The notes beneath the pieces are model-generated. The model did not search any database. It was given only the letters and a program-made list of their open reading frames with translations, and had not been told where the DNA came from. Source: an uncultured Candidatus Saccharibacteria bacterium (GTDB lineage: Bacteria; Patescibacteriota; Minisyncoccia; Phycocordibacterales; UBA9973). Taken from it: a stretch of 64,000 nucleotides of DNA. The stretch spans positions 67,747 through 131,746 of the forward strand of contig CAZHJZ010000003.1 in NCBI GenBank assembly GCA_964532495.1. The letters are read 5' to 3'. Positions 2,758-57,753 of this stretch are shown here, in pieces; the stretch's first letter is position 1, and each line of letters begins with the position of its first letter. A program made the position numbers and the translations under genes.

Positions 2758-4221
2758 ATGGCGATTAAAAAAATTAAACCAGGAGGCAAACTAAACAACA
2801 ACGCAAAACTGACAGACGATGAGCATGCCCTGCTCGCCCTTTCTCCACTCGATGGTAGGTACAAAAACACTACCAAAAAGCTGGGAGAGTATTTTAGCGA
2901 ATTTGCACTGCAAAAATACCGCTTATTGATTGAGGTTTTATACCTTGAAGATTTTTGCCGGATTACTGGTATTGATATATCGGGACGCCAGCAGAATATA
3001 TTGGATACTATAGTGCCGAATTTTTCCCGCGCAGATGCTAAGCGCATTAAAGAAATCGAAAAAGGCAAAAAGAACAGCAAAGGAATAATAACAGTGCCTG
3101 GCATTAACCACGACCTTAAATCAGTAGAAGTATTTTTGCGTGAAAAATTAACTGCGTTAAAGTTTAATAACAAAATTCTGGGCGCTATTCATTTTGGCCT
3201 CACCAGCGGCGATATCGATAATATCGCCAGAACGTGGATGCTGGCTGACGCTACGAATATTATGATGAAAGACACCTACGCAGTGATAGACAGGCTAAAA
3301 GCAGATTGCGAAGATTATGCCAGCTTGGCTATGGTTGCCAGAACTCACGGACAGCCGGCTGTGCCGACTACATATGGCAAAGAGGTAAACGTGTTTAAGC
3401 GTCGGCTTACCCATCAGTTAGGCACACTCACCGAGTTTACTTTCTCTGTAAAATTCGGAGGCGCGGTAGGAAACTTCAATGCGTTGCACGTTGCATACCC
3501 TAAGATTGATTGGGAGAAATTTGCTGATACATTTGTGGAGAAAATTTCAAACCGCATGATTTTTGGTAAATTACTGCGTGAAAAAGTTACTACGCAGATT
3601 GATTCCTACGATTCGCAGGCTGAATTTTTTGCCGTGTTTACTCGCTTCAATACTATATTGATGGGTTTATGCCATGATATGTGGGAAATGATAAGCGACG
3701 ATCTATTGCTTCAGAAAAAAGTAAAAGAAGAAGTAGGCTCATCCGCTATGCCGCAAAAGGTTAACCCGATTGATTTTGAAAATGCTGAAGGCAACCTGGG
3801 GTTGGCAAACTCGCAGTTTTTCCACTTTATGGCCAAACTTCCTATTTCTCGCCGTCAGCGAGATCTAACTGACTCGACGGTGGTTAGGAATATAGGTGTT
3901 GCATTGGGGCATAGTTTGATTGCATACCAATCGCTATTGAGAGGGTTGAATAAAATCAGCCCGAATGTTGATAAAATGCAGGCCCAACTTGAAGCAAACC
4001 CTGAAATAATTACCGAAGGCATACAGACGATTTTACGGAGAGAAGGTATGCCGGATGCTTACAATATGCTCAAAGACTTAAGCCGTGGAAACAAACTGAC
4101 ACGCGCAATGATTGCCCAGTTTGTACATGAGCTGAAAGTTAAGCAAAGCGTGAAGCAAGAGATTTTGGCAATTACGCCGCAAAATTATTTGGGGTATGCC
4201 AAAAATTTAGCCTGGCAATAG
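2758..4221 (+). CDS. purB: adenylosuccinate lyase
   Basis: Fumarate-lyase signature SSAMPQKVNP, TSGDIDN, HGQPAVPTT; ~487 aa long-type PurB. Confidence 0.9.
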   Translation: MAIKKIKPGGKLNNNAKLTDDEHALLALSPLDGRYKNTTKKLGEYFSEFALQKYRLLIEVLYLEDFCRITGIDISGRQQNILDTIVPNFSRADAKRIKEIEKGKKNSKGIITVPGINHDLKSVEVFLREKLTALKFNNKILGAIHFGLTSGDIDNIARTWMLADATNIMMKDTYAVIDRLKADCEDYASLAMVARTHGQPAVPTTYGKEVNVFKRRLTHQLGTLTEFTFSVKFGGAVGNFNALHVAYPKIDWEKFADTFVEKISNRMIFGKLLREKVTTQIDSYDSQAEFFAVFTRFNTILMGLCHDMWEMISDDLLLQKKVKEEVGSSAMPQKVNPIDFENAEGNLGLANSQFFHFMAKLPISRRQRDLTDSTVVRNIGVALGHSLIAYQSLLRGLNKISPNVDKMQAQLEANPEIITEGIQTILRREGMPDAYNMLKDLSRGNKLTRAMIAQFVHELKVKQSVKQEILAITPQNYLGYAKNLAWQ

Positions 4222-5658: not shown

Positions 5659-6357
5659 ATGAAATATTCCCCCGAAACTCCTTTAAAAGTATTCGTATTT
5701 TTTCAAAACGGCGCAAGCGGCATTCGCTATTGCATGGAACATGATCCGTACTACGCTACCTCAAAAAAGTATACAGTAGTTGGCGTGTTTACTGATAACA
5801 AAAATGCCACGGCGCCTCCCTACTTTACAGAAAAAGGAATACCAACTTTTTGTCTGGATGTAGATGACTTCTATGCCCCATTCGGCGTACGGCCCAAAAA
5901 AGATCCTGATTTCAAAATTCGCGAAGAATATTGCAAGCAGGTATATGAAATGATTAAGGATCTCGACTTCGACCTTATATTATTTTCCGGTTTTGATTTG
6001 CTTATCACCAAATCGCTGATTGATCCGTATCCAAAACAGATCATCAACGAGCATCCTGCCGATGTACGTCCGCAGGAAAATGGCAAACCTAAATACGCTG
6101 GCCTGCATGACAAGCCCGTACAGTTGGCCATTGATGCTGGTGAGAAAGTTCTCTACTCAAGCGTTATATTCGTTGAAGGAACAGAAGCCGATACCGGAGC
6201 TATCGTATGTGTTTACGATGAAGAAGGTGTTACGGTTGATACCCAGCAATTTACTACTACGCAGCACCGCGAGCAGCTTAAGCCCTTCGGCGGAAAGTCG
6301 ATCCAAAAAGCATTGCATATGATTTGCGACGAAGAAATTGCTATCGGCGTTGAATAA
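5659..6357 (+). CDS. purN: divergent phosphoribosylglycinamide formyltransferase-like (formyl_trans_N fold)
   Basis: EKGIPTFCLD and IINEHPADVRP...AGLH align to PurN motifs (AGIPTFVLD; IINIHPSLLP..GLH); sits between purB and purD. Confidence 0.55.
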   Translation: MKYSPETPLKVFVFFQNGASGIRYCMEHDPYYATSKKYTVVGVFTDNKNATAPPYFTEKGIPTFCLDVDDFYAPFGVRPKKDPDFKIREEYCKQVYEMIKDLDFDLILFSGFDLLITKSLIDPYPKQIINEHPADVRPQENGKPKYAGLHDKPVQLAIDAGEKVLYSSVIFVEGTEADTGAIVCVYDEEGVTVDTQQFTTTQHREQLKPFGGKSIQKALHMICDEEIAIGVE

Positions 6358-6517: not shown

Positions 6518-7867
6518 ATGAAAACAACCTCTTTCAACATCCTCATTTTAGATAGTGGGGGCCGCGGTACTGCGCTAGCGCAGGCATTACGCGAAAGCAG
6601 TAAGAACAACAATCTTTTAGGTAGCCTCTATGTTGCTCCTGGCAATGCAGGTACAGCGCTTGTAGCGGAAAATGTACCCATTGGTATGAACGATTTCGAA
6701 GCGCTTAAAATATTTTGCTTACAAAAAGAAATTGATGTAATTATCCCTGGCTCGGAAGAACCGCTGGCTAATGGCATTAAAGATTTTTTTGCAAACGATC
6801 TGTCAACCAAAAGTATCTGCGTAGCAGGCCCGACCAAGGCAGCTGCTCAGATCGAATCAAGCAAATCCTTTGCGAAAGGGCTTATGCAAAAAAATGGCAT
6901 TCCGACTGCCGACTACCAGGTATTTACTCTGGATACTATTGCGGAAGGATTCGATTTTATTGATGAGTTTACTGGTCCGGTTGTTCTAAAAGCAGATGGC
7001 CTTGCCGGCGGCAAGGGTGTGATTATTTGCAAAGAAAACGGCGAAGCAAAAGAAACATTGAAAGCGATGCTTGAAGGCAAATTCGGCGCAGCGAGCGCTA
7101 CGGTTGTTGTTGAAGAATTTTTGGAAGGGATTGAATTTTCCGTGTTCGTGCTAACCAACGGCGTTGATTATTTTATTTTGCCGGTGGCGAAAGACTATAA
7201 GATGTCGCACAATGGGAATACTGGATTGAATACCGGTGGCACAGGAGTTGTTTCTCCGCTTCCATTTATTACATCATCCTTTATGCAGAAAGTTGAAGGG
7301 CGTATTATCAGGCCGATATTGCAGGCAATGCAGAATGAGAAAACGGCGTTTGCTGGCTTCCTCTACGGCGGACTGATTAAGGTTGGTGATGACCCGTTTG
7401 TAATTGAATTCAATTGCAGGCTGGGTGATCCCGAAACTGAACTATCGCTGCTTCGTTGCAAAACCAATTTCCTTGAATTGCTGCTTGCATATAAAGGTGG
7501 CACTTTGAAAAGCGTTGAAGATTTGGGCGACAAAGCCGGCTACAAAGTTGCAGTTGTAATTATGGACGAAGGTTACCCTGAAACCGTAAAACATAAAGGC
7601 AGAATAATAGAACCAAGCGACCCATTGCTACACAATTCTAATTTTATTATTTCCGGCCTTCAGATGAATGCCGAAGGAAAATTAGTTGTAACCAGCGGCC
7701 GTATTGGCGTATGTATCGGCAGCGATCCGAGTTCTCTTGCCTTCGCGAAACGGAATGCGGATGAAAACGCAGAAATTGTAATGGAAGCGCTTGGACCTGG
7801 GTTCCGTTACCGTACAGATATTGGCGATGATATTATTTCGCTTCAGTCGCAAGTTGCAGCTAAGTAA
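6518..7867 (+). CDS. purD: phosphoribosylamine--glycine ligase
   Basis: ILILDSGGRGTALA, VAPGNAGTA, ATP-grasp core (VLKADGLAGGKGV), PurD C-domain. Confidence 0.9.
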   Translation: MKTTSFNILILDSGGRGTALAQALRESSKNNNLLGSLYVAPGNAGTALVAENVPIGMNDFEALKIFCLQKEIDVIIPGSEEPLANGIKDFFANDLSTKSICVAGPTKAAAQIESSKSFAKGLMQKNGIPTADYQVFTLDTIAEGFDFIDEFTGPVVLKADGLAGGKGVIICKENGEAKETLKAMLEGKFGAASATVVVEEFLEGIEFSVFVLTNGVDYFILPVAKDYKMSHNGNTGLNTGGTGVVSPLPFITSSFMQKVEGRIIRPILQAMQNEKTAFAGFLYGGLIKVGDDPFVIEFNCRLGDPETELSLLRCKTNFLELLLAYKGGTLKSVEDLGDKAGYKVAVVIMDEGYPETVKHKGRIIEPSDPLLHNSNFIISGLQMNAEGKLVVTSGRIGVCIGSDPSSLAFAKRNADENAEIVMEALGPGFRYRTDIGDDIISLQSQVAAK

Positions 7868-7934: not shown

Positions 7935-8693
7935 TTATTTCTCACTCTCCCACAATTTTTTAAATACTTCTCTCATGTTGTGCGCCAATACCGCATCATG
8001 AATTTCTACAAGATAGAACGGCCGCTGTCCGGTCACTACGAGAATAATATAATCTCCGCATATCCACTGTGTGCCGGTGAATTGATTCTCCCCTTTCCAA
8101 AATTTGATGAATCGCTTCTCCGCATATTTTCCTTCCATCATGTCTTCGGCGGCAGATTTGTTGCTGAAGAGTTTCAGTACCATTTCTTTCGGAGCGCGAT
8201 TCCATTCCCAATCAATAATGTGCTTGAAGTGTTCAACATACGTATGATCTTGAAAGCCCCAATATGTCAGGTCATGCATCTGCATGCTTTGATGCCATCG
8301 CGGAATAGCTTCGTACAGATACGATTCAAGATCTGCCTCGTCAACGAATCGGATTTTTGGAATTGAAAACGTTTTGGATTCTGGAATATTTTTGAGAACT
8401 TCTTGGAGTTCGTGGATGGAATTTTCTTTTTCTTTCAATACTTCGTGTTCACGCGAAATGATTTTCTCAAGTTCTTCTTGCCGCGCAGGCATGTAGTAGA
8501 GTACTTTGCCGCCAAGGTCTTCGACGATCAAGCCTTTTTCCTGCAATTCCTTCGCTACGCTATATACAGTTGTGCGATTGATCTTGGTCAGCCGAGAAAC
8601 TAGCGCTGGAGCGATCTTGCCCCGTTCAAGTATTAGTTTATAGATGATTTGCTCTTTATTACCGAGTCCAAGCTTCTCCAAGATTTTTTCCAT
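7935..8693 (-). CDS. TrmB-family transcriptional regulator (paralog 1)
   Basis: N-terminal wHTH GLGNKEQIIYKLILERGKIAPALVSRLTKINRTTVYSVAKELQEKGLI plus TrmB-type C-domain; paralog of 15262..16044. Confidence 0.7.
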   Translation of the reverse strand: MEKILEKLGLGNKEQIIYKLILERGKIAPALVSRLTKINRTTVYSVAKELQEKGLIVEDLGGKVLYYMPARQEELEKIISREHEVLKEKENSIHELQEVLKNIPESKTFSIPKIRFVDEADLESYLYEAIPRWHQSMQMHDLTYWGFQDHTYVEHFKHIIDWEWNRAPKEMVLKLFSNKSAAEDMMEGKYAEKRFIKFWKGENQFTGTQWICGDYIILVVTGQRPFYLVEIHDAVLAHNMREVFKKLWESEK

Positions 8694-9561: not shown

Positions 9562-10137
9562 ATGAAAACAATCATCGATGTGAGTACCGACCAGGAAGTG
9601 CTTATCAATCAGGATAGTTTGCCTCTTATGATCCACGGACAGGATCGTTCGGGTGCGTCGTTCTTTACTATCTCGCTAGCCGCTCAGTTTCACGCTGCCG
9701 GAAACAAGCTGCTTATCTTCACTGCCTTTCAAATGGCAAAAGAAGAATTTTTGAATCAAGTTGCGGAGACAGTAGACAAAGTGTTTTATCTGGAATCCGA
9801 AAACGATTTTGAAAAAGCAAAAGAATTTCAGACCATCTATGTTCAAAGCGGCAATGTTGATCTGTTTATGAAAATACTTTCGCAAGCAACTGACAGAATT
9901 GTGTTTGTAAAAAATATAGAATCGATTGATCAGGATATTTTTACTGAACTATCGAGACACCCATTTATTGTTTCTGGTGACGTAGAAGTGAATCCAAAAC
10001 AAAAAGTTTTTCTTGATCATGCATATGCAACAAAAATACTCTTCTCCTCTCTTCCTGATGTAACCCTTCCCGCGTTGGCTAAATACCAGGCTTTCCTTCA
10101 AACAAAAAGCGCCGAACACATTATTGCTCTAAATTAA
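9562..10137 (+). CDS. hypothetical protein with degenerate RecA/KaiC-like P-loop
   Basis: LMIHGQDRSGASFFTISLAAQ resembles Walker A (GxxxxGK[ST]) but lacks the Lys/Thr; DRIVFV Walker-B-like hydrophobic-Asp; 7 nt upstream of the next gene. Confidence 0.4.
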   Translation: MKTIIDVSTDQEVLINQDSLPLMIHGQDRSGASFFTISLAAQFHAAGNKLLIFTAFQMAKEEFLNQVAETVDKVFYLESENDFEKAKEFQTIYVQSGNVDLFMKILSQATDRIVFVKNIESIDQDIFTELSRHPFIVSGDVEVNPKQKVFLDHAYATKILFSSLPDVTLPALAKYQAFLQTKSAEHIIALN

Positions 10138-10143
10138 TATCAT

Positions 10144-11895
10144 ATGAATCAAAACTGTCAGGACTGTAAAAAAGAATTTGTGATTGATGCTGAAGACCAA
10201 TCATTTTACGAACGAATGAAAGTCCCCGCTCCGACATTTTGCCCATCATGCCGATGGAAGCGTCGCGCAGCGTATCGTAACGAAGGGAAACTATTTCGAG
10301 TACAGAATGCTTTCACTGGAGAAACTATTTTTTCATTGTTCCCGCCCGAAGCTGGATTGAAAGTCGTAACGCAGGAACAATGGTTCTCAGATTCATGGAA
10401 CGCCATGGACTACGGCCGCGACTATGATTTCTCCCGAAACTTTTTCGAGCAGCTGTTTGAGTTGTACAAAGACGTGCCTGTCTATAACCTGAACGTAAAG
10501 CAGATGATCAACAGCCCATACTCCGCTAACGCTTCATTTCAAAAGAACTGCTACCTTGTTTTTAATGCTAGTGAAAATGAAAATTGCATGTACGGCAATG
10601 GAGTGGATTTTTGTCGCGACTGCGTTGATGCCTCCTGCATCAATCATTGCGAACGGTGCTACGAAGGATTCTGGCTAGAGAATTGTTACAAGTGCCACTT
10701 CACCATCTTGAGCGTAGATTGCCAGAATGTCTTGTTCTCTCGCGACTGTCTGGGATGCACGGACTGCTTTGGCTGCACCAACCTCCGAAAGTCGTCTTAC
10801 TGTATTTTCAACCAGCAGTATTCCAAAGAGGAATATGAGGCCAAGATCGCAGAAATGCGGTTGGATACTCATGAAGGAGTAACTGCTGCTCGGCAGGCCG
10901 CCCGCGCCTTCTGGAAAACTCAGCCCAACAAATACCACCAAGGTCTCAAGAATGTGAACTCCACTGGTTCATATGTTTCACACTCCAAAAATGTCCGTGA
11001 CAGCTACCTTGTCCGAGAGAGTGAGAACATGCGCTACTGTCAGAACATGCTCGTTCCAGCCAACAAAGACTGCTACGATACTTCATTTTGGGGAGAAAAG
11101 ACGGAGTTGAACTATGAAACAAGCGTTTGTGGAGAGAACTCGTACAACCTGAAATTCTCATGGGACTGCTGGCCGAATGTGCGTGAAACTGAGTATTCAA
11201 TGCATTTGAAGTCTTCCTCCGACTGTTTTGGGTGTGTTGGCATGAAGAAAGCCCAGTACTGTATCTTGAACAAGCAGTACACCAAGGAAGAATACGAAAA
11301 ACTTGTTTCACGGATAAAGGAACAGATGAATGAGATGCCATATATCGGACATGATGGTTCCGTGTATCGCTATGGCGAGTTCTTCCCTATCGACCTTGTT
11401 CCGTTCGGCTACAACAATTCCCTGGCCCAAGAATATTTTGAGATCACTATAGAAGCCGCAGAGAGAAAAGGCTACCCTTGGATCGAAGTAGATCGCGGCG
11501 ACTATGCGATCACCCTAAAAGCATCCGAACTTCCCTCTTCTATAGATGAGGTGTCGGATACCATCCTCAAGGACATTATCGAATGTGAAACATGCGGTTA
11601 TGCCTTCCGTATCATGCCTGAAGAGCTGACATTCCTCCGCAAAGAAGACCTCCCGCTTCCCCGTTCGTGCAATAATTGCCGCCACAAGCAAAGATTGCTC
11701 GACCGACTTCCCGCAGATCTGCATGAAACACATTGTATGTGTGCTGGAGAAAAAGATGCCACAAATCAGTATCAAAACTCAGTTTCACACCCGCATGGAA
11801 GCGTGCCGTGCCGTGAAAGCTTTCAAACAGGATACTCACCGACCTCGGGGGCGATCGTGTACTGCGAAAGTTGCTATCAGCAAGAGACGGTTTAA
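10144..11895 (+). CDS. cysteine-rich protein with N- and C-terminal zinc-ribbon modules (paralog A)
   Basis: N-term CQDC-x24-CPSCRWKRR..RNE; C-term CETCG-x24-CNNCRHKQR; central run of ~9-12-residue Cys-pair repeats; no signal peptide. Confidence 0.6.
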   Translation: MNQNCQDCKKEFVIDAEDQSFYERMKVPAPTFCPSCRWKRRAAYRNEGKLFRVQNAFTGETIFSLFPPEAGLKVVTQEQWFSDSWNAMDYGRDYDFSRNFFEQLFELYKDVPVYNLNVKQMINSPYSANASFQKNCYLVFNASENENCMYGNGVDFCRDCVDASCINHCERCYEGFWLENCYKCHFTILSVDCQNVLFSRDCLGCTDCFGCTNLRKSSYCIFNQQYSKEEYEAKIAEMRLDTHEGVTAARQAARAFWKTQPNKYHQGLKNVNSTGSYVSHSKNVRDSYLVRESENMRYCQNMLVPANKDCYDTSFWGEKTELNYETSVCGENSYNLKFSWDCWPNVRETEYSMHLKSSSDCFGCVGMKKAQYCILNKQYTKEEYEKLVSRIKEQMNEMPYIGHDGSVYRYGEFFPIDLVPFGYNNSLAQEYFEITIEAAERKGYPWIEVDRGDYAITLKASELPSSIDEVSDTILKDIIECETCGYAFRIMPEELTFLRKEDLPLPRSCNNCRHKQRLLDRLPADLHETHCMCAGEKDATNQYQNSVSHPHGSVPCRESFQTGYSPTSGAIVYCESCYQQETV

Positions 11896-11952
11896 TAAAA
11901 TAAGAGCGATGCTGCGTAGCAGCATCGCTCTTTTGTATATACTTCTGTCGTT

Positions 11953-12582
11953 TCACGAACTTTGTTTAATTCTAATTATCTCAAATGTGTAGGTGCCAAG
12001 GAATTCTTTTTTGTAAGAGAGTGAAACCTCAAGGCGTACTCCAGCGGGGATGCCTTTCTGCTGTTTCTCGCTAATCAAAAAATCATAGAGCTCCTGTTCC
12101 TTTAGGCTGATAATGGCCTTTAGAGTGTCCAGTCTATCGGACAAAATGTCCTTTTTGTTATTTGCAGTCTCTATCAGTGACCAGGTAAGGGTAGCTAAGG
12201 CTGACAGCGAATCCGATCTGGTTCCATATTCTTCTATGAGCTTAAGCACCTCATTCTCCTGAATGCCGGATTCTGATAAAAGTGCCACTGAGTCATTGTA
12301 AAGATTTGCATACCCGGTGTACCTCTTTGTGGTTGCCATCAGTTCAGTCACTACTGTTTTTACTGATTCCAAGGATTGCTCCGTAGTATCTTTTTGAAAG
12401 TAGAGGCGCACCAATTCATTTTTATAGATATTCCAATACTCTTTTTGTATGGAATTAAGAACAATGGGCCGTTTCAGTACCGTGTCATGGTTGGCCGCAG
12501 CGGATTGCTTTTGGAAAGTTTGTGCATACGGGGCAGTCAAAAAGGCGCAGGCAGTCAGCAAAAGTAGGATTCGTTTCTTCAT
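11953..12582 (-). CDS. secreted hypothetical protein
   Basis: Signal peptide MKKRILLLLTACAFLTAPYAQ; start chosen at internal Met of ORF 11953..12642. Confidence 0.45.
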   Translation of the reverse strand: MKKRILLLLTACAFLTAPYAQTFQKQSAAANHDTVLKRPIVLNSIQKEYWNIYKNELVRLYFQKDTTEQSLESVKTVVTELMATTKRYTGYANLYNDSVALLSESGIQENEVLKLIEEYGTRSDSLSALATLTWSLIETANNKKDILSDRLDTLKAIISLKEQELYDFLISEKQQKGIPAGVRLEVSLSYKKEFLGTYTFEIIRIKQSS

Positions 12583-12688
12583 GGTAAATAATTTTTTTTT
12601 CTTTACTTTGCCCTTTTTCCCAGCGTAAGTCAACCATGACATATTGACATAAAATCTTTATGAAGATATTCTCAAGAAAAACTAAAGA

Positions 12689-13165
12689 ATGACTAACAAC
12701 CGAAAAACCCACAGTGCCGCTGTAAAAGTCCTCCCTATTTGGTACACATACCGAGTGCAGATCGCCCTTGAACTTTCCAGGCTTCGCTTCCGGCCAGACT
12801 TTGTTGACCGAGTACTTGAATTTAAAGAGAAATTCGCCGGTACGACAAAATGGCTTATAAGTCAGGAACCTGATGAAGAAACGTATTCGGCACCCGAGAC
12901 ATCTTCCGCATGGGGAAAACATTTACGCCGCTGGCAAAAAAAACTATTGAACGAGAAAAAGAAATTGTTCAAATCATGCCCCGTTTTCTCTGACGCGCAG
13001 TGGGGTGACGATAAAGAGATATTATTCACTATGCTCTTCATGAGCATAACAAGCGAACTCAATTCGCTTGAAAAACCAGAAATTCCTTTTATCCAGCAAT
13101 TCAAAAAAATAAACAAAAGCAAGGCAAAGAAAAAGAAAAAGCGCAAAAACAAATCCCGGACCTAA
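12689..13165 (+). CDS. hypothetical protein with highly basic C-terminal tail
   Basis: 158-aa ORF ending KSKAKKKKKRKNKSRT; terminator overlaps its stop. Confidence 0.35.
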   Translation: MTNNRKTHSAAVKVLPIWYTYRVQIALELSRLRFRPDFVDRVLEFKEKFAGTTKWLISQEPDEETYSAPETSSAWGKHLRRWQKKLLNEKKKLFKSCPVFSDAQWGDDKEILFTMLFMSITSELNSLEKPEIPFIQQFKKINKSKAKKKKKRKNKSRT

Positions 13166-13185
13166 GGCCCGGGATTTTATTTTTG
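13153..13185. terminator. bidirectional terminator between convergent genes
   Basis: atcccgg..ccgggat hairpin with a T run. Confidence 0.6.
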
Positions 13186-13189
13186 ATCG

Positions 13190-14869
13190 CTATTGAATTT
13201 CCTGCTGATAGCAAGGCTCGCAATATACCTGCTCTGTTCGTTCTGGTGCATAGCTTGTCTCAAATTGATTGGAGCAGCTGCCACCCTGGTGACCGATATG
13301 TTCTTTGATAGTGCACATGCATGATCGCTTCCAGAGTTCGCGCGGCGTTCGTTTTTCCATTCGAGCTTTGTGTCGGCACTCGAAATCTTTATGCGGGATC
13401 GGCAGATGCATTCTCTTGTAGAAGTCGAGTTCAGCTTTGATCAGACGATAATTTTTACCGCAATCACTGCAAGTAAAGATATCTTGTAGAATCGAATCAG
13501 CAACTCCCTCTATCGTTTTTGGCATATCCGCTTCTTTCATTGTTTCTTTGCCGAATGTACCAGTGTTTGATTCTCGCCAACTAAATCCTTGAGCGAGTGC
13601 TTGTTCCTTTTCCATTGGGAAAAAGTCATGAGCCAAAGTCTCGTTGTAGCCGAAAGGTGCGATATCCGGCGGGAAGAACTGACCATAATTTTTGTCAGTT
13701 TTAAGTTGGTCTTCAATGTTACTTCGCAGTTCAAGATAGTCTTCTTTTGAATATTCTTTATTCAAAATCATATATGACCCTTTTCTGACGGCAATACATC
13801 CAAGAGCGTTAGATAGGTGGTGGCAACTTTCACAATATTCAACTTCGTTGCAGTAAAAGACAAAAGCGGAATTTTTTAATCTGCTCCCCTCCAGCGCTCC
13901 CATGATGTTGTAACCGAAAGAAGGCTTGTAGTAGTAGTTGTTGCAATCCATGCTGTCGGTCGGGCTTTCGGTGTCAGTCATATACGAACAATTTTTTGCA
14001 TCGTATGTATCGTAGAGTAATACCCCATCATGACAGTTGTACAGATAATTCCCAGTAACGTTGTTGCACTTTACTTGTGAGGCGAATTTTCTTATAGCTT
14101 GGCTTTTCAATATCTCAAATTCTTTTTTTGCCTCCTCGATACTTTCAAAGCTTGAAAGTATTTCTTTCTTCTTCTTTTCAAATTCTTCCTTAGAATATTT
14201 TACATTAAGTATCGCATTGGATACATGTCTCCCATTTGTAGAGAAAATACAGTTCTGGCTGTCTCGCATGTTGTAACAAAAGAGAAGATCGCTTGAAGAT
14301 TGGCATTGTTCAGAAAACATGCAGTTAAAACACTGTCTGCAATCAATACACTCATAACACAATTCAGATTCATGTAGAAAGGCGCAATCTACGCATTGCT
14401 TGTCGCGCTGAAGCAATCTTCCGTAAAGACAATCTTCATTGTAATCTGCGGCAAAAATAAGATAGCAGTCTTTGTTTTCTGCCGAGCCGTTTGTGTAGTC
14501 GCTCCGAACATTATTAAAGGCCATAAGGCTTAGTCGAGGAACTTTCTGTTGCAAGCTTTTATATTGTTCAAAAAAAGGCTTAGTTAGATCATAGTCTACG
14601 CCATAATCTTTGGGATCCCATTTATCACTCCACCAGCACTCATGACAGTACACAGTATATGGCGAGCTTGGCGAATAAACAGAAATCATATCTTTCTTAC
14701 AAAGATCGCAGGGTCGTTTGTAGAAAGTTCGTTCATTTCTGAAAACCAGCCGTTGTTTCATTCGACAATCCGGACAGTGTATAGGTTCCGCGACTTTCAT
14801 TTGCGTATAAAAAACCTGATCTTCAGGACGGATTTCAAATTGTGCGCTGCAAGTTTTACAGGTGGTCAT
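13190..14869 (-). CDS. cysteine-rich protein with N- and C-terminal zinc-ribbon modules (paralog B)
   Basis: N-term CKTC-x24-CPDCRMKQR..RNE; C-term CSDCG-x~24-CRHKARM; same architecture and Cys-repeat core as 10144..11895. Confidence 0.6.
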   Translation of the reverse strand: MTTCKTCSAQFEIRPEDQVFYTQMKVAEPIHCPDCRMKQRLVFRNERTFYKRPCDLCKKDMISVYSPSSPYTVYCHECWWSDKWDPKDYGVDYDLTKPFFEQYKSLQQKVPRLSLMAFNNVRSDYTNGSAENKDCYLIFAADYNEDCLYGRLLQRDKQCVDCAFLHESELCYECIDCRQCFNCMFSEQCQSSSDLLFCYNMRDSQNCIFSTNGRHVSNAILNVKYSKEEFEKKKKEILSSFESIEEAKKEFEILKSQAIRKFASQVKCNNVTGNYLYNCHDGVLLYDTYDAKNCSYMTDTESPTDSMDCNNYYYKPSFGYNIMGALEGSRLKNSAFVFYCNEVEYCESCHHLSNALGCIAVRKGSYMILNKEYSKEDYLELRSNIEDQLKTDKNYGQFFPPDIAPFGYNETLAHDFFPMEKEQALAQGFSWRESNTGTFGKETMKEADMPKTIEGVADSILQDIFTCSDCGKNYRLIKAELDFYKRMHLPIPHKDFECRHKARMEKRTPRELWKRSCMCTIKEHIGHQGGSCSNQFETSYAPERTEQVYCEPCYQQEIQ

Positions 14870-15261
14870 AATTATTTAGTATAACTTATATATCATTAAC
14901 TCTATAAAGCAGATAAGATGTGTGCACCAACTTCTCTACTTTAAAAGCCAATGCTTGGCTAATGTAGCTCAGTTCGACCATTTCTCGGAGGAAAGATGGC
15001 CACTACTACCCATAAAATCACGATAATGAAAATTATGATGGCGACTATTTTCATAAGGGATGTGTTACGTGTTAAATAGTTCATCTATTCGACAGACAGA
15101 TAAACTAACACAAGACTAGTATAGCAGATCCAAATTTATATGTCAATAGATATCGTCAATTTAACTTCAGAAATAAGCCTAAAAATAAGGTGATTTGCAC
15201 TAAAAAAGAATTTTGTGGAAGAATATTGACACAAATACCCTCCATAAAGTATACTTAAAAC

Positions 15262-16044
15262 ATGAAAAAAGACGATGTGAAACTCAAAAATGCCCTAGTT
15301 GAAATAGGTCTTTCTGATAAAGAAGCCGGAGTATATTTAGGGCTCCTGGAATTGGGTCGCGGCACTGTTTCTCAGATTTCTCGCAAAGCGAATATTAATC
15401 GTACAACCGGCTACGATATTTTGGATACATTAGCGCAAAAGGGTTTGGTGAGTATTTCTGGAAAAGAACCAAAACAAGAATATACTGCTGAGTCCCCCGA
15501 AAACTTGAGTACCTTTATCGCGCATGAAATCCAAACAAAGCATGAAGCACTTCGAAAAACAGAAAGCTTGATTCCTGAATTGAAATCTCTTCACAATGTA
15601 ACCGATAGACCCCGAGTAAGATTTTATGAAGGAATCGAAGGACTTACTCAGGTATATGAGGACACACTCACCTCTCATGAAACGATCCGCGCCTTTGCAA
15701 CAGTAGATGACATGCATGCCGCGCTGCCCAATTATTTTCCAAAATACTATAAGCGGCGAGCAAGTGCCGGCATTGAAATACGGGCGATCATACCTTCTAC
15801 TGAGATCGGAAAGGAACGTGCATTGCGTGATAAAGAGGAAGCTCGCGAAAGTGCTCTCGTGCCAGCGGATAAGTTTTACTTTTCTCCTGAGATCAACGTC
15901 TATGACAACAAAGTAATGATCGCTTCGTGGAGAGAAAAGCTCGGCATCATTATCGAATCAAGCGAGGTTGCCGATGCTATGAAAAAGATATACGAGCTTG
16001 CGTGGGCTGAAGCAAAACGACTCGATCGAGATATTCGACAATAA
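15262..16044 (+). CDS. TrmB-family transcriptional regulator (paralog 2)
   Basis: wHTH LSDKEAGVYLGLLELGRGTVSQISRKANINRTTGYDILDTLAQKGLV; same domain order as 7935..8693. Confidence 0.7.
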   Translation: MKKDDVKLKNALVEIGLSDKEAGVYLGLLELGRGTVSQISRKANINRTTGYDILDTLAQKGLVSISGKEPKQEYTAESPENLSTFIAHEIQTKHEALRKTESLIPELKSLHNVTDRPRVRFYEGIEGLTQVYEDTLTSHETIRAFATVDDMHAALPNYFPKYYKRRASAGIEIRAIIPSTEIGKERALRDKEEARESALVPADKFYFSPEINVYDNKVMIASWREKLGIIIESSEVADAMKKIYELAWAEAKRLDRDIRQ

Positions 16045-18680: not shown

Positions 18681-20243
18681 TTATTTTACCCCGTGCTTGC
18701 CTCGGATTCTTGCTAGCTCTTCTTCTTCCGTTTCTTCCTTCGCTTTTTTGCCTTCCTCCCCTTTTGCTTTCAATTCGGCGTCGGTGAGGGTGTTCAATTC
18801 GAGTGTTCTCTTTTTCAAATATTCAATTTCATTTTTATCCGGATCTTCCAGTGATTCTTCGAGGAGAGTGTGGAGTATCCATCCCATGCGAGGGCCGGGG
18901 CGAATCCCAAGTTCTTTGATGAGCACTTCCCCATTGATCTTGAGCATGCCTACTGAAGTCGGTGCGCGCAATGCTTCCTCTATCATCGCATGGTATTTAC
19001 GGAGACGATATGGCGCTTCAACTTTCTTCATGCCCACACGGTCGCACTCGCGGATCTGCATCAATTCCCAAATATGTTCCCTGCCGATATTTACTATCGT
19101 TCGGCGGACCGCTGAAAGTGTGATTGCTTCTGTATCCGAGAAGAACATATGATAGCGGACAAGCTTCACTACGAGATCAGAAAGTTCGCGCGGATATTTC
19201 AATCGCTCCATAATCTTTGCTGCCATGCGGCCGCCCACTACTTCATGGCCATAAAATGTATATGCCTTTTTAGATCCAGGTCGTCGGGTTCGCGGCTTTC
19301 CTATGTCATGAAAGAGCGCGGCAAGCCTGATAGAGAGAGGCCAATCTTTTCCTGAAGCATGTCCCAGAGCTTGCAGTAGATGCTCGAACACATCATATAT
19401 ATGTACGCCTCCCTGCTCGCAGCCAATACCCTCACGAAGTTCGGGCACTATGTGTTCAAGCAATCCAAGCTTCTCCAATAGTCCCACTCCAATCATCGGA
19501 TCAGTAGATTCTATAATCTTCGTAAATTCATCACGTTTTCGTTCCCACGAAATATGTTTGAGAAGACCAGAGTTTTCCACAACCCCCTGCATCGTTTCTA
19601 CTGAGATGGCAAAACCTAATTGTGTGGAAAACCTTACCGCCCTCAACATGCGCAAGGCATCTTCTCTGAATCGTTCATCTGCGCTCCCTACTGTTACGAT
19701 GACTTTGTCCTTCAAGTCACGGACACCATTAAATTCATCTACAAGAAGTCCTTGAGATGGATTGTATGCCATAGCATTGACCGTAAAGTCACGTCTTTTT
19801 AAATCATCAAGTAAATTAAGGCTAAAAGACACATCATCAGGGTGCCGACTGTCACTATACCCTGCCTCTAACCTGTATGTTGTTATCTCTATGACCTTTA
19901 TCGTCTCATCGGTCTCCTCTTCGTTTACAATTGCTACTGTCCCAAAGATGTTTTCATAGACCGTTTTTGGATATAATGCTTGAATTTGAGCTGGAGTAGC
20001 GTTTGTTGTAATATCCCAGTCTTTGGGTTTTTTGTTCAGCAGAAGGTCTCGTACGCATCCACCGACGATGTATGCTTCGTATCCCGCACTTTCAAGTACG
20101 CCAAGTGTCGTTATGACTGATCCTGGTATTTGTTCTTTATTTATTGTGCCGTGGCCTTGGTTTTCCAATGTGACCATTAAATTGTGTGCGGGTAGGGAGA
20201 ATCGGACTCCCGTCTCATCCTTGGCAAGGACGTGTTCTACCAC
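18681..20243 (-). CDS. cca: CCA-adding tRNA nucleotidyltransferase with HD domain and Lys/Glu-rich C-terminal tail
   Basis: GGCVRDLLL..DWDITT polymerase-beta head motif; HDIGK HD domain; C-terminal KAKGEEGKKAKEETEEEE extension. Confidence 0.85.
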   Translation of the reverse strand: MVEHVLAKDETGVRFSLPAHNLMVTLENQGHGTINKEQIPGSVITTLGVLESAGYEAYIVGGCVRDLLLNKKPKDWDITTNATPAQIQALYPKTVYENIFGTVAIVNEEETDETIKVIEITTYRLEAGYSDSRHPDDVSFSLNLLDDLKRRDFTVNAMAYNPSQGLLVDEFNGVRDLKDKVIVTVGSADERFREDALRMLRAVRFSTQLGFAISVETMQGVVENSGLLKHISWERKRDEFTKIIESTDPMIGVGLLEKLGLLEHIVPELREGIGCEQGGVHIYDVFEHLLQALGHASGKDWPLSIRLAALFHDIGKPRTRRPGSKKAYTFYGHEVVGGRMAAKIMERLKYPRELSDLVVKLVRYHMFFSDTEAITLSAVRRTIVNIGREHIWELMQIRECDRVGMKKVEAPYRLRKYHAMIEEALRAPTSVGMLKINGEVLIKELGIRPGPRMGWILHTLLEESLEDPDKNEIEYLKKRTLELNTLTDAELKAKGEEGKKAKEETEEEELARIRGKHGVK

Positions 20244-20331
20244 TAAACCATACCCGCATAGTTATCTAGTAACGCGGATCATTATATACTGTGTTTCACA
20301 ATTTCGCAATTCGTGTATAATAGACCGGCAT

Positions 20332-20403
20332 GCACCCATGGTGAAATGGATATCACAACGGTCTTCGGAACCGTTATTGGGGGTTCGAATCCCTCTGGGT
20401 GCA
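20332..20403 (+). tRNA. tRNA-Arg (anticodon TCG)
   Basis: Cloverleaf: acceptor GCACCCA/TGGGTGC, anticodon stem ACGGT/ACCGT with loop CTTCGGA, T-arm GGGGG-TTCGAAT-CCCTC; CCA not encoded. Confidence 0.8.
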
Positions 20404-20451
20404 CATACATGAAAAAACCGCCTCCCGGGCGGTTTTTTCATGTATGTGCAC
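20399..20451 (+). terminator. 27-bp perfect hairpin overlapping the tRNA-Arg 3' end
   Basis: GTGCACATACATGAAAAAACCGCC-tcccg-GGCGGTTTTTTCATGTATGTGCAC; 22-nt arms (20399-20420/20430-20451) plus inner 5-bp GC stem. Confidence 0.7.
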
Positions 20452-20779
20452 CCAAGCTCGTTTGTCCCCTTCGGGACCGATGAGGCATCGCCTGCGCCTC
20501 TTGCGCGACCGAAAAGCACCCGCCACGGTAGCGGAGAATCCCTCTGCTGTCTTATTATATTATTTGACACTTCCCTGTCCCTTGTATAATTCTGTCAATG
20601 TCCTTTTAAAGTCCTTTTCCACATGATTTATCCTTGTATTTATTGGAAAATGGGGATAACCATGTGCATTATGTTGATAAGAGACACTAAATCTGTTGCC
20701 TAATTTGTACGTCTTTTATACATGATATCCTTATATACCAACGTATTTTACTTATTTTGACTAGAATATGGGTTTTCAA

Positions 20780-20979
20780 CTGTACATTCGTTTCACGTGA
20801 AACAGATTTAAAGTGTTACACATGAAACTTAAGATTAAGGACTCTAAGACATTTAAATACTAGATATCTAACAGATTGGGTAATACTGCAGGCTTAGGTT
20901 ATGTTTCATGTGTAACACTTAGATACATCTTTATTTAGTTTTTATATATATTTCATGCTGAATTGCTAGTATTTGTTTC
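20780..20979. promoter_or_regulatory. four operator-like inverted repeats GTTTCA-N2-TGAAAC upstream of yraN
   Basis: 20780-20793 GTTTCACGTGAAAC; 20805-20818 GTTACACATGAAAC; 20893-20906 GTTTCATGTGTAAC; 20964-20979 TGTTTCATATGAAACA; in a ~30% GC intergenic block. Confidence 0.5.
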
Positions 20980-21012
20980 ATATGAAACAGGTAAACGTAT
21001 TATATATAAGAT

Positions 21013-21423
21013 ATGCCTAGAGTTTTTACATCAAAAAGACAGAAGCTTGGCCAGCTAGGAGAGTCAATTGCTGTCACGTTCTTAAAAAATCATGGATTTC
21101 GCGTATTAGAAAGGAACTATACTCGCAAGTGGGGAGAATTAGATATTATTGCTGAAAAGGATCAAGAACTGCATTTTATTGAAGTTAAAGCTGTTTCACG
21201 TGAAAAAAATAGAATTAATACAAAGGATATAAGAGACCAATATAGGCCAGAAGAGAATATGCATCCTATAAAACTTCGCAAAATCTATCGGACAATACAA
21301 AGTTATCTAATAGACAGACATATACCAGACTCTATGGTCTGGCAAATTGATCTTGTGTGCGTATATCTTGATTCAGTCCGAAAGCAAGCAAAAGTTAAAA
21401 TTATAGAAAATATAGTCGGTTAG
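21013..21423 (+). CDS. yraN: YraN/UPF0102 family endonuclease-fold protein
   Basis: GQLGESIAVTFLKNHGFRVLERNYTRKWGELDIIA...LHFIEVKA matches the YraN signature. Confidence 0.75.
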   Translation: MPRVFTSKRQKLGQLGESIAVTFLKNHGFRVLERNYTRKWGELDIIAEKDQELHFIEVKAVSREKNRINTKDIRDQYRPEENMHPIKLRKIYRTIQSYLIDRHIPDSMVWQIDLVCVYLDSVRKQAKVKIIENIVG

Positions 21424-21608
21424 GGGATTGCAAGGAAGGCACTTCGGTTTCATGTAAAACGCCAGAAAATGAATATTTATGGCATGAGTCGGCCGCTGGT
21501 TTTATATAAGGATTACTAGTTGAGCGTAGTAACTGGCAATATCTCCAGCCATTTTTCGATATTTTCGTTGTAAAATTAAAAAAATATGCTACTATAGTCA
21601 CGTCGCAT

Positions 21609-21679
21609 CGGGGTGTAGTATATCGGTAGTATACTTGTTTTGGGAACAAGAGGGCCGAGTTCGATTCTCGGCACCCCGA
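21609..21679 (+). tRNA. tRNA-Pro (anticodon TGG)
   Basis: Acceptor CGGGGTG/CACCCCG, anticodon stem CTTGT/ACAAG with loop TTTGGGA, T-arm CCGAG-TTCGATT-CTCGG; D-arm pairing imperfect. Confidence 0.65.
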
Positions 21680-21687
21680 CAAAGAAT

Positions 21688-22041
21688 ATGGATATCAAGA
21701 ACGTCAAAGTGTCTTTTCCGACAGATAAGATAAAAAGCCCAATACAGGGGTTTGTTACTTTTATCCGTGAGCAGGGGATTGTTGGCCTCGCTGTTGGTTT
21801 TATCTTGGGAGGGGCTGTCTCGAAGATAGTCGCTTCGCTTGTAGAGAATGTTATAAATCCTCTCGTAGGTATTCTCCTTGGCAAGGTTAACCTTGTTGAC
21901 CGAATGTGGACAGTGGGAACCGCAACGCTTAAATATGGAGCTTTCCTCAGTACTCTCATAGATTTCATCATTATCGCCGCTGTTGTGTATTTTGGAGTCA
22001 CTTGGCTCGGATTGAACAAGCTTGATAAGAAGAAGGAATAA
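21688..22041 (+). CDS. mscL: large-conductance mechanosensitive channel
   Basis: GFVTFIREQGIVGLAVGFILGGAVSKIVASLVENVINPLVG and C-terminal LNKLDKKKE; start trimmed to MDIKN after the tRNA. Confidence 0.85.
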   Translation: MDIKNVKVSFPTDKIKSPIQGFVTFIREQGIVGLAVGFILGGAVSKIVASLVENVINPLVGILLGKVNLVDRMWTVGTATLKYGAFLSTLIDFIIIAAVVYFGVTWLGLNKLDKKKE

Positions 22042-22069
22042 GTAAAAATACATACTTAGAAACACATAA

Positions 22070-22098
22070 AAACACCTTAAGACTTAAGGTGTTTTTAT
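22070..22098 (+). terminator. rho-independent terminator after mscL
   Basis: aaaacaccttaag-ac-ttaaggtgttttt. Confidence 0.8.
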
Positions 22099-22153
22099 GT
22101 GTTTGACGAATGAATTCAGTACTGTATAGTGAGTTTAAATAAAACTCGTTACT

Positions 22154-23155
22154 ATGGCAAAAAAGGCTGAAATGGGCAATTCTAAAAAAATGCCACATAC
22201 AATACACAGGAACAACAAGGAAATACACAAGGAAAGAGGGAAGATGATAATATGCAATTTTGATAAGCAATCCCCGCAAGAACTTCCGTTCACAAACGTT
22301 AGTGGAAAGATTGGCATCAAAATCGAATTGCGTTTAAAAACCAACGAAGAATTCTTCTTTTATTCCTGCGATAGTACCATCGATGACAGTGAAGATCTGT
22401 TCACCGCACCGGTTAGCAGCAGGAAAAACCTTCGTTTGGTATATATCACACTTGCTCTCCGCCCGTCGACCCCAGGCCGCGGTTCAAAGAATGCTTTCTA
22501 TCTTTCTGTTGTTAATTTTAAAACAGGAGAAGGGTATACCTACAAAGTTGGAGTAATGAACGTTACGCCGGAAATGTCGGATAAGCAAATTTCCTATTTT
22601 GTTAAATGCAAAATCACTCCGCATTATCTTTGGAACAAAGGCAGCAAAATGCCAGAGATAGAATCTTTCATTGATGTGCCGCTTGATCAATTCTTGTGCC
22701 GGATGGGAAACAAGAAAGAAAAGTTTGCAATGCTTCCACGCAAATATCGCAAGCTAAAATTTCCGTATCCTAAACGTCCTCGCACAGAGAACACTGCACG
22801 CAATGTGTTCTTTGATCCTTTCGAAGGAAAGGGTATTGCGCTTACGCATCAGGGACAGCTAGCAATGTATGGCATTGAGTATTTGGAAACTAAGTTCTCA
22901 ACTATTTTCCCAAAAGAAGGTGAGAACTTTAAAGATTTCTTTTCTGTACCGCTCTACGACGCTACAAACCGACTTATTACGCATGTGGCAGTACGTAGAA
23001 AAAGTTTCGATGAAATTAAGAAAAGAAAAAAGAAGTACAACTACCAGGCTTCATACAATGAAGAAAAACTTAACCAGCTGTTCGACATACAAAGCTTTTA
23101 CCAGATAGGCGAAACACAAGGAGCAATTGTGCTTAGTAATTTCCTCTCCGATTAG
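22154..23155 (+). CDS. hypothetical cytoplasmic protein
   Basis: 333-aa ORF without signal peptide or recognisable domain; start uncertain. Confidence 0.35.
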   Translation: MAKKAEMGNSKKMPHTIHRNNKEIHKERGKMIICNFDKQSPQELPFTNVSGKIGIKIELRLKTNEEFFFYSCDSTIDDSEDLFTAPVSSRKNLRLVYITLALRPSTPGRGSKNAFYLSVVNFKTGEGYTYKVGVMNVTPEMSDKQISYFVKCKITPHYLWNKGSKMPEIESFIDVPLDQFLCRMGNKKEKFAMLPRKYRKLKFPYPKRPRTENTARNVFFDPFEGKGIALTHQGQLAMYGIEYLETKFSTIFPKEGENFKDFFSVPLYDATNRLITHVAVRRKSFDEIKKRKKKYNYQASYNEEKLNQLFDIQSFYQIGETQGAIVLSNFLSD

Positions 23156-23245
23156 GAACCAATCTAATAAAACCTAAATCCTCCGATAGCAAGGGGGATT
23201 TCATTTGTCTTTTTGTGAATTTTTGCTAGTATAGTGGATACCAAT

Positions 23246-23319
23246 GCGGGATTAGTTAAATGGTATAACTCTAGTTTTCCAAACTAGTGTCGGGAGTTCG
23301 ATTCTCCCATCCCGCACCA
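23246..23319 (+). tRNA. tRNA-Trp (anticodon CCA), CCA 3' end encoded
   Basis: Acceptor GCGGGAT/ATCCCGC, anticodon stem CTAGT/ACTAG with loop TTTCCAA, T-arm GGGAG-TTCGATT-CTCCC, terminal ACCA. Confidence 0.85.
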
Positions 23320-57716: not shown

Positions 57717-57745
57717 TTGCTAACCCGTATCTCATATGGGATACT
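57717..57745 (+). promoter_or_regulatory. conserved promoter (TTGCTA-17-GATACT), copy 2 of 3
   Basis: ttgcta-acccgtatctcatatgg-gatact, then tttcactat ATG. Confidence 0.55.
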
Positions 57746-57753
57746 TTCACTAT

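Follow-up and report, generated by a model that had tools for sequence, protein, structure and literature searches.

In a 64-kb stretch of DNA from an uncultured Candidatus Saccharibacteria bacterium (contig CAZHJZ010000003.1; the window, on whose numbering all coordinates are given), two open reading frames (ORFs), here called genes A and B, encode long-diverged paralogues of a soluble cytoplasmic protein family specific to Patescibacteria. Each protein would form a rod, in which two narrow β-solenoid modules with 12-residue coils, capped by helices, lie between two-finger cassettes, one at either end. This description of the family, zinc fingers on a two-module solenoid rod, is very likely to be correct. 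The whole protein is an undescribed architecture made from known fold types, and the repeated finger motif itself falls in a named, uncharacterised Pfam family. As to function, the proteins are tentatively explained as a set of zinc-finger-docked adaptors or scaffolds working with ATPases, an explanation whose chances we place somewhat short of even. A preliminary description of the locus, made from its sequence alone, had reported both ORFs, and each peptide that it quoted is present in their translations; its interpretation is partly supported. The two genes and their parts are as follows.

10144-11895, plus strand: gene A, A-type member, 583 aa (ORF translation)
10144-10287, plus strand: A finger 1 (aa 1-48), treble-clef CxxC-x24-CxxC, ligands C5, C8, C33 and C36
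10288-10395, plus strand: A degenerate finger 2 (aa 49-84), homologue of CxxC-x17-CxxC
10501-10818, plus strand: A predicted β-solenoid module 1 (aa 120-225), about 9 coils of 12 residues
10819-10929, plus strand: A helical hairpin (aa 226-262), helices 228-238 and 243-257 in the model
10930-11277, plus strand: A predicted β-solenoid module 2 (aa 263-378), about 9 coils, strands every 12-13 residues
11278-11571, plus strand: A capping helix and small acidic α/β domain (aa 379-476), pLDDT above 90
11572-11715, plus strand: A finger 3 (aa 477-524), second CxxC-x24-CxxC, ligands C481, C484, C509 and C512
11716-11892, plus strand: A finger 4 (aa 525-583), C-x17-CxxC-type treble clef, ligands C531, C556, C574 and C577
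13190-14869, minus strand: gene B, B-type member, 559 aa (ORF translation)
14729-14869, minus strand: B finger 1 (aa 1-47), ligands C4, C7, C32 and C35
14621-14728, minus strand: B finger 2 (aa 48-83), intact CxxC-x17-CxxC, ligands C54, C57, C75 and C78
13484-14620, minus strand: B core (aa 84-462), with linker, two predicted β-solenoid modules, helices and α/β domain, from alignments with A
13340-13483, minus strand: B finger 3 (aa 463-510), C467, C470, D495 and C498
13193-13339, minus strand: B finger 4 (aa 511-559), PF23477 at 19.3 bits, TIGR04272 at 16.6 bits, LIM at E 0.008

Aligned along their entire length, A and B are 33% identical (E 1e-103). The closest homologues of A share 58-88% identity with it and are 580-600 aa long, those of B share 65-81%, and a protein identical to B (P0121) is on record in an NCBI contig (135,666 bp) and a Logan contig (8.4 kb). 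No signal peptide was found in either protein, the first finger beginning at residue 4-5, and neither a transmembrane (TM) segment nor a hydrophobic stretch was seen (maximum Kyte-Doolittle 19-residue mean, 0.72), in agreement with the cytoplasmic location proposed earlier. Both proteins are acidic overall, with net charges of -18 (A) and -12 (B).

The Cys motif was described as occurring four times in the two paralogues, and these copies are indeed homologous. The profiles of finger 1 and finger 3, built from 184-190 family sequences, align with an hhalign probability of 99.1% (E 8.2e-19), and a hidden Markov model (HMM) of finger 1 matches 190 out of 190 internal copies (best E 1e-18), which, together with the identical CxxC-x24-CxxC spacing, establishes the homology. 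The profiles of fingers 2 and 4 are related as well (hhalign 93.8%, E 1.8e-7), hence the same two-finger cassette stands at each end of the protein. The copies first taken for C-terminal are thus internal, being followed by about 65 more residues and a further finger (C531, C556, C574 and C577 in A). Similarly, the proposed consensus does not hold for all four copies, since the internal copy of B has Asp495 at the third ligand position, inside a KDFECRH sequence conserved in all B-type proteins.

The motif is not new, as it belongs to PF13451 (zf_Tbcl), a Pfam family annotated as "probable treble clef domain" and formerly as "probable zinc-ribbon". A finger 1 scores 29.2 bits against it in the whole protein and 36.1 bits when isolated, above the gathering threshold (GA) of 24 bits, while B finger 1 scores 20.4 and 25.5 bits, respectively. 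In addition to the score, A finger 1 has the two CxxC pairs and the treble-clef topology of the family: in the AlphaFold2 (AF2) model, DSSP assigns a hairpin (E2-4/E11-13) and a helix (34-43) starting from the second CxxC, and in the sequence the ligands are followed by the basic helix CRWKRRAAYRNE. Finger 3 of A is modelled with the same topology (E479-480/E487-488, then H510-518). In A and B, however, each protein has two copies of the domain, both paired with a second finger, and the internal copies have diverged too far for the Pfam HMM (no match even at E<=10). Matches to PF13451 at E<0.01 were found in 21 of 81 diverse relatives. The preliminary description would have given way to a match with a known Pfam zinc-ribbon of documented function; half of this was found, namely the family, and no documented function accompanies it.

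The second fingers match two families only, TIGR04272 and PF23477 (zf_Tbcl_2), and in A and B remain at 13-19 bits, below the cut-offs of both (36 and 27 bits, respectively). B finger 2 is an exact CxxC-x17-CxxC whose sole NCBIfam match is TIGR04272 (13.2 bits), whereas its counterpart in A has lost all four Cys (N55, T58, T76 and Q79). Finger 4 reads C556-x17-C574-x2-C577 in A (PF23477, 18.7 bits; TIGR04272, 15.4 bits), ends in the ...VYCxxCY characteristic of these families, and differs from them in taking one ligand from a distal Cys, C531 being the likely fourth; C533, H549 and H551 are additionally found within an insert. PF23477 is matched at E<0.01 by 20 of the 81 relatives. Zinc binding by small CxxC-x17-CxxC proteins of Methanosarcina mazei was measured by inductively coupled plasma mass spectrometry (PMC12704099).

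Across 191 relatives, the Cys of the fingers behave as real four-ligand sites. The four Cys of finger 1 and of finger 4 are 96-99% conserved, and the full four-Cys set is present in 184 relatives for finger 1 and in 167 for finger 3. The Cys set of finger 2 is kept or lost as a whole, with 82 complete sets (9.3 expected) and 75 relatives with none. Fingers 1 and 4 are also the most conserved parts of the protein (mean pairwise identity of 0.57 and 0.49, respectively). On these sequence grounds, the repeated motif is a genuine conserved module that probably binds zinc. With one Zn per finger, A would hold three or four Zn, and B four if Asp495 or a His completes finger 3.

LIM domains, which are eukaryotic, offer a parallel to the cassette in that they also consist of two consecutive zinc fingers and are used as protein-docking modules. 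Finger 4 weakly resembles the second LIM finger (PDB 1ctl, E 0.056; Pfam LIM on B, as listed above), but these matches are not significant, and the ligand spacing and the first finger differ. LIM may therefore be taken as an analogy of use rather than as a family to which the cassette belongs.

The central part had been read as a metal-binding Cys ladder. Instead, the Cys-rich core of A and B is modelled as a β-solenoid. An AF2 run on a 124-sequence alignment including more diverse relatives (38-53% identity) gave a model of A with a mean predicted local distance difference test (pLDDT) score of 92.2 and a predicted template modelling (pTM) score of 0.91, replacing an earlier run with 41 sequences in which the pLDDT of the core was about 58. 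In the model, the strands repeat with an autocorrelation of 0.53 at lag 12 for module 1, and of 0.37 and 0.33 at lags 12 and 13 for module 2. Module 1, which holds the supposed ladder, closes in the cap DCFGCTNLRKSSYCIFNQQYSKEEYE, and module 2 in the cap DCFGCVGMKKAQYCILNKQYTKEEYE, which repeats the sequence of the first; the consensus of the caps is DCFGC...YCI(F/L)NxQY(S/T)KEEYE followed by a helix, with a shorter form, C(I/Y)(L/F)NxQY(S/T)KEEYE. The α/β domain that follows module 2 carries invariant YGEFFP, PFGYN and GYxW sequences and a net charge of -8. No match for this domain was found in Pfam, PDB or Foldseek, and the 430-aa core as a whole has none in Pfam. The solenoid bodies and helices are the least conserved parts of the protein (mean pairwise identity, 0.30-0.36).

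The Cys periodicity noticed earlier is confirmed by counting: the spacings between core Cys fall on multiples of 3 and peak at 9 and 12 (z-scores of 5-7 in A and B), and, summed over the 191 relatives, the periodicity stands about 45 z units above shuffled sequences. Positions 3, 6, 9 and 12 of the coil frame hold C/S, A/V/I/L, C/S and C. This is reminiscent of the Tenebrio molitor antifreeze protein (TmAFP; PDB 1ezg), whose coil, TCTxSxxCxxAx, has C, S, C and A facing inward. Both share 12-residue coils with small residues at every third position, and by this analogy the core Cys of A and B would face inward at every third residue, where Ser, Ala or Val would be equally suitable. The differences are substantial: A and B lack regular cross-coil Cys pairs that could form disulfides (A coil 197-208 is the only one with Cys at both frame positions 6 and 12), a TxT ice-binding face or ladder, and a signal peptide. 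Other narrow β-solenoids were also compared (the ryegrass ice-binding protein 3ult and the curli protein CsgA 8c50); unlike the antifreeze and other narrow solenoids, the present family is cytoplasmic, its modules are helix-capped and lie between finger cassettes, and no sequence relationship exists. The TmAFP-type β-helix is accordingly proposed as a structural analogue and not as a family that includes A and B.

A different view of the core would make these proteins metal-storage, redox or iron-sulfur (Fe-S) proteins, either with the ladder ligating a row of metal ions or with an Fe-S cluster at the Cys-dense end of module 1 (C202-x2-C205-x2-C208-x2-C211 plus C190, C193 or C220). The 22 Cys of the A core invite this view, as do the joint presence of C202, C205 and C208 in 131 of the 191 members, the 98% conservation of C208, and the fact that the C202-C211 stretch is the only poorly modelled part of the protein (pLDDT 60-74), as would be expected of a cofactor-dependent loop. 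However, Cys occurs at ladder positions in 12-98% of the relatives (19-98% at most of them) and is otherwise replaced by Ser, Val, Ile, Leu, Thr or Ala, one residue at a time, and complete candidate four-Cys sets of the coils are only as frequent as if the residues were independent (e.g., 5 observed for 3.0 expected, 2 for 3.9 and 109 for 101). This independence, set against the all-or-none behaviour of the finger Cys, suggests that the ladder Cys are replaceable packing residues and the finger Cys ligand sets. Moreover, many of the ladder Cys of A are Ser, Met or Ala in B, which reads Met, Ser, Cys and Ser at positions 202, 205, 208 and 211. The motif is CxxCxxCxxC and not CxxCxxCxxxCP, neither Fer4 nor another metal-cluster Pfam family was matched in the 81 members, and none of the features of [4Fe-4S] ferredoxins (motif, Fer4 HMM, jointly kept ligands) was found. 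A metal or Fe-S function for the family appears very improbable.

The family is large. Homologues of A number at least 7,929 and those of B at least 1,981 in a 90%-clustered database, and an exhaustive profile search of 1.84 billion 50%-representatives returned 5,009 clusters with E ≤ 1e-3, of which 2,108 reach E ≤ 1e-30; among the 150 matches listed, nearly all are 510-610 aa long. All source names are "hypothetical" or "uncharacterized" except one JGI label, "YbaR (Trm112 family)". The named organisms are Paceibacterota, Minisyncoccia, and Nomura-, Staskawicz-, Lipton-, Jorgensen-, Giovannoni-, Sungii-, Magasanik- and Moranii-bacteria, and the family is restricted to ultra-small Patescibacteria. 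A few members are titled Gammaproteobacteria, Aenigmatarchaeota or Saccharibacteria (L077, L081 and many "uncultured Candidatus Saccharibacteria" loci). Such titles, borne by short contigs or generic labels, are probably an effect of binning or labelling and not the true distribution.

Pfam recognises only the two finger types in the 81 diverse members. Searches of NCBIfam and PADLOC, of PDB with two family profiles, and of PDB with Foldseek gave nothing significant, and IMG/VR viral contigs contain no relative. A literature search returned no paper on the family, nor on the function of PF13451. A defence system or a phage origin was considered and set aside, given that PADLOC has no match for A, B or the upstream ORFs and IMG/VR no relative. 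Informative domain fusions were also sought; the only long match, P0396 (731 aa), joins two neighbouring paralogues and looks like a frameshift or assembly chimera rather than a genuine fusion.

The duplication of the whole gene, first thought unusual, is the norm of the family, in which tandem arrays of 2-7 paralogues are common. The gene context was analysed in 82 loci (80 species-representative genomes, one JGI contig and the window) by our own ORF calling and clustering, in which the zinc-finger/solenoid family is F0 and a P-loop ATPase, described below, is F1. These loci contain 222 family members. Out of 83 fetched loci, 24 carry one copy, 22 two, 16 three, 11 four and 10 five to seven. 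Adjacent members share a strand in 93 of 93 pairs and are separated by a median of 12 nt. Array-mates share a median best identity of 43%, the nearest relative of 96% of members lies in another genome rather than in their own array, and positional orthology is kept in the dnaK...dnaJ context. A and B represent two ancient subfamilies, and orthologues specific to each are found in other genomes (up to about 88% and 81% identity, respectively). Given this habit of the family, the convergent pair in the window, with two small ORFs between its genes, is a modest, non-tandem instance.

Many co-transcribed paralogues of equal length would also be expected of a structural or cytoskeletal element, in which paralogues co-assemble through their cassettes or solenoid ends into a bactofilin-like hetero-polymer or lattice, and ftsW and murG adjoin some loci. 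Yet both modules are helix-capped and flanked by globular domains, which normally blocks end-to-end polymerisation of solenoids, and the pTM of the model indicates a compact monomer fold. The bactofilin family (PF04519) and the hexapeptide and pentapeptide families of Pfam have no match in A or B at E<=1, nor in the 81 relatives at E<=0.01. Polymerisation of this kind is considered quite improbable.

The commonest neighbour of the family, and the only recurrent one that is not a housekeeping gene, encodes a VirD4/TrwB-like P-loop ATPase (F1; TrwB_AAD_bind, T4SS-DNA_transf, TraG-D_C and DUF87 matches). It is present in 32 of the 82 loci, directly adjacent to a family member in 21 and within two genes in 28. 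Its settings include two that are unrelated to each other, dnaK-ATPase-F0(n)-ATPase-dnaJ and secD-secF-sigma-like-TM protein-small protein-ATPase-F0(n), among others. If, as we estimate, such a genome has about two VirD4-like genes among roughly one thousand, this adjacency is far above chance, although the loci are related by descent. Long forms of the ATPase (e.g., L006:2854-4983) contain a bona fide CxxC-x17-CxxC finger (PF23477, 49.2 bits; TIGR04272, 57.9 bits). In several of these genes (L006:2854-4983, L043, L036, L053 and L055), the finger is followed by a long low-complexity tail; split forms consisting of a 450-aa TM-only protein and a 490-aa ATPase also occur, as do 900-aa fused forms (L037 and L076). 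In one lineage, an ATPase-F0-F0-ATPase block lies between dnaK and dnaJ on the same strand, with a PaaX-like regulator upstream (L006, L016, L021, L027, L031, L055, L069 and others), suggesting co-transcription with the chaperone genes.

VirD4-like genes are numerous in Patescibacteria, with 5,713 in 2,918 genomes, of which only 148 are near virB4, and their exaptation was proposed (PMC12102498). These orphan ATPases resemble the zinc-finger/solenoid family in the type of finger, in abundance and in their position away from virB4 and the genes of the type IV secretion system (T4SS), while A and B themselves have no P-loop or similarity to ATPases. In the explanation that we favour, the fingers would dock onto a partner common to all paralogues, and the variable surface of the solenoid would give each paralogue its own target or its own place in a hetero-assembly. 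The partner would be the orphan VirD4/TrwB-like ATPase with its CxxC-x17-CxxC finger, a partnership that is possible, though rather unlikely when taken by itself. The family would then supply adaptors or scaffolds that either bring nucleic-acid or protein cargo to a translocase-type motor or organise the motor. In its most specific form, the family and the orphan ATPases would make up an unrecognised Patescibacteria-specific machine, in which differentiated adaptors dock through the shared CxxC-x17-CxxC-type fingers on a hexameric translocase and select distinct DNA, RNA or protein cargo for uptake, export or remodelling, and in which a subset, the A-type proteins, might also have a metal or Fe-S site where solenoid module 1 ends; this version is speculative and, on present evidence, unlikely.

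Several points weigh against this explanation. The loci are phylogenetically related, so that neighbour counts are not independent. The ATPase is encoded neither in the window nor in 50 of the 82 loci, hence any partnership is not obligatorily encoded in cis. The other neighbours are housekeeping genes (dnaK, dnaJ, secDF, ftsW, murG, rplS-like and map-like), and the arrays could simply belong to core regions that are conserved. The fingers of A and B, in contrast to those of the long ATPases, fall below the PF23477 and TIGR04272 thresholds. The treble-clef fingers carry no more than a mild positive charge (+2 to +4), so that nucleic-acid binding is not evident. Finally, the inward orientation of the core Cys is deduced from the period-3 pattern and the analogy with 1ezg.

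Alternatively, the proteins could bind nucleic acid on their own, the cassettes, about a solenoid length apart, clamping or bridging RNA or DNA, with the ATPase neighbourhood being incidental. Roles as an rRNA or tRNA chaperone, as a nucleoid organiser or in the handling of incoming DNA would be examples. The treble-clef helix is Arg-rich (CRxxRRxxxRNE, with R37, R41 and N46 at least 90% conserved), the medians for finger 3 across the family are a charge of +4 and an isoelectric point of 9.2, and some neighbours are related to RNA or the ribosome (RluA-like, L19-like and RsmE-like, by eye); ComEC and RecJ are encoded in the window. The whole proteins, however, are acidic, known families of nucleic-acid-binding fingers gave no match, and generic binding poorly explains up to seven differentiated paralogues. 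Autonomous binding is judged unlikely.

The adjacency of an ATPase resembling a type IV coupling protein (T4CP) could also mean that the proteins are its cargo, substrates that are passed to the VirD4-like ATPase and leave the cell or enter a host cell; there, disulfide bonds could form in the narrow, Cys-rich solenoid, as in insect antifreeze proteins. The TmAFP-like coil geometry would suit this fate, and effectors typically come as diversified sets of paralogues. Nevertheless, the proteins lack a signal peptide, and their four tightly folded predicted Zn sites argue against unfolded translocation. A cross-coil Cys pair (frame positions 6 and 12) exists in one coil only. In addition, orthologues are well kept (58-88% identity), unlike fast-evolving effectors, and the arrays lie among housekeeping and not T4SS genes, most Patescibacteria T4CPs being far from virB4 (PMC12102498). 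Export as cargo appears very unlikely.

Besides the adaptor explanation and the associations weighed above, other neighbours were considered. Small recurrent neighbours (F19, F26, F46, F47, F59, etc.) were rejected as partners, being housekeeping-like by eye. In the window, purB (2758-4221), purN (5659-6357) and purD (6518-7867) lie upstream of A, and in a relative (L002:5083-13821) a complete pur operon includes an A-type gene between purL and purQ, the stop and start codons overlapping. A general association with purine operons was nonetheless rejected, as pur genes are not recurrent neighbours in the 82 loci. The features that flank A and B are the following.

9562-10137, plus strand: 191-aa ORF of family F20, ending 6 nt before A
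11902-11932, both strands: GC-rich terminator-like hairpin of 14 bp, 7 nt past the A stop
13151-13177, minus strand: terminator-like hairpin directly past the B stop
15118-15146, minus strand: promoter-like site TTGACA-17-TATACT with TG, upstream of B (consensus match only)

The 191-aa ORF is probably co-transcribed with A, and ORFs of the same family adjoin family members in three other loci (L003, L021 and L027). Pfam and PADLOC searches with it gave no match, and its interpretation as a degenerate ATPase fragment (Walker-A region) was rejected, the hmmsearch and hhalign results not being significant (E 0.03-0.05, probability 1%). The promoter-like site of B lies in a 392-bp region common to B and a divergent TrmB-family gene, with promoter-like sites on both strands. 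TrmB-family regulators are encoded near both paralogues (7935-8693, minus strand; 15262-16044, plus strand), the one near B being adjacent and divergent and the one near A about 1.4 kb upstream, and the pairing of such a regulator with a family member recurs in L003, L019 (twice) and L075. Between A and B, a 229-aa ORF (11953-12642, minus strand) has an N-terminus, MKKRILLLLTACAFLTAPYAQ, like that of a signal peptide or lipoprotein, and a 158-aa ORF (12689-13165, plus strand) ends in a poly-Lys tail, KSKAKKKKKRKNKSRT; neither has a meaningful Pfam match.

Elsewhere in the window, genes at 28135-29655, 44143-45804, 46585-48036, 53082-54884 and 57736-59616 encode RNase Y, RecJ, ComEC (competence), an HTTM-domain protein and a Kelch-repeat protein, respectively. 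No more than 1 kb separates RecJ from ComEC, an arrangement that fits a DNA-uptake lifestyle. Downstream of a gene of the CCA-adding enzyme/poly(A) polymerase family (18681-20243), a stretch of 3 kb (20186-23319) has four scattered tRNA genes (Gly-GCC, Arg-TCG, Pro-TGG and Gly-TCC). A 443-aa protein (37634-38965, minus strand) matches Por_Secre_tail, the C-terminal sorting domain of the type IX secretion system (33.2 bits; GA 27), a surprising find for a Patescibacteria-type genome.

Patescibacteria account for a large part of bacterial diversity, with genomes of about 1 Mb, and much of their biology depends on unnamed proteins. At least 2,108 strong clusters, and runs of up to seven copies in genomes of this small size, represent a major unexplained investment. 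A cytoplasmic β-solenoid with a Cys/Ser ladder and 12-residue coils would be of structural interest in itself, the known 12-residue Cys-laddered examples being secreted, disulfide-bonded antifreeze proteins. With a fold model, defined predicted metal sites and a candidate partner, this instance of the "hypothetical protein" problem becomes experimentally approachable. If the proposed machine exists, it would be a core part of macromolecule handling in these reduced, host-dependent cells.

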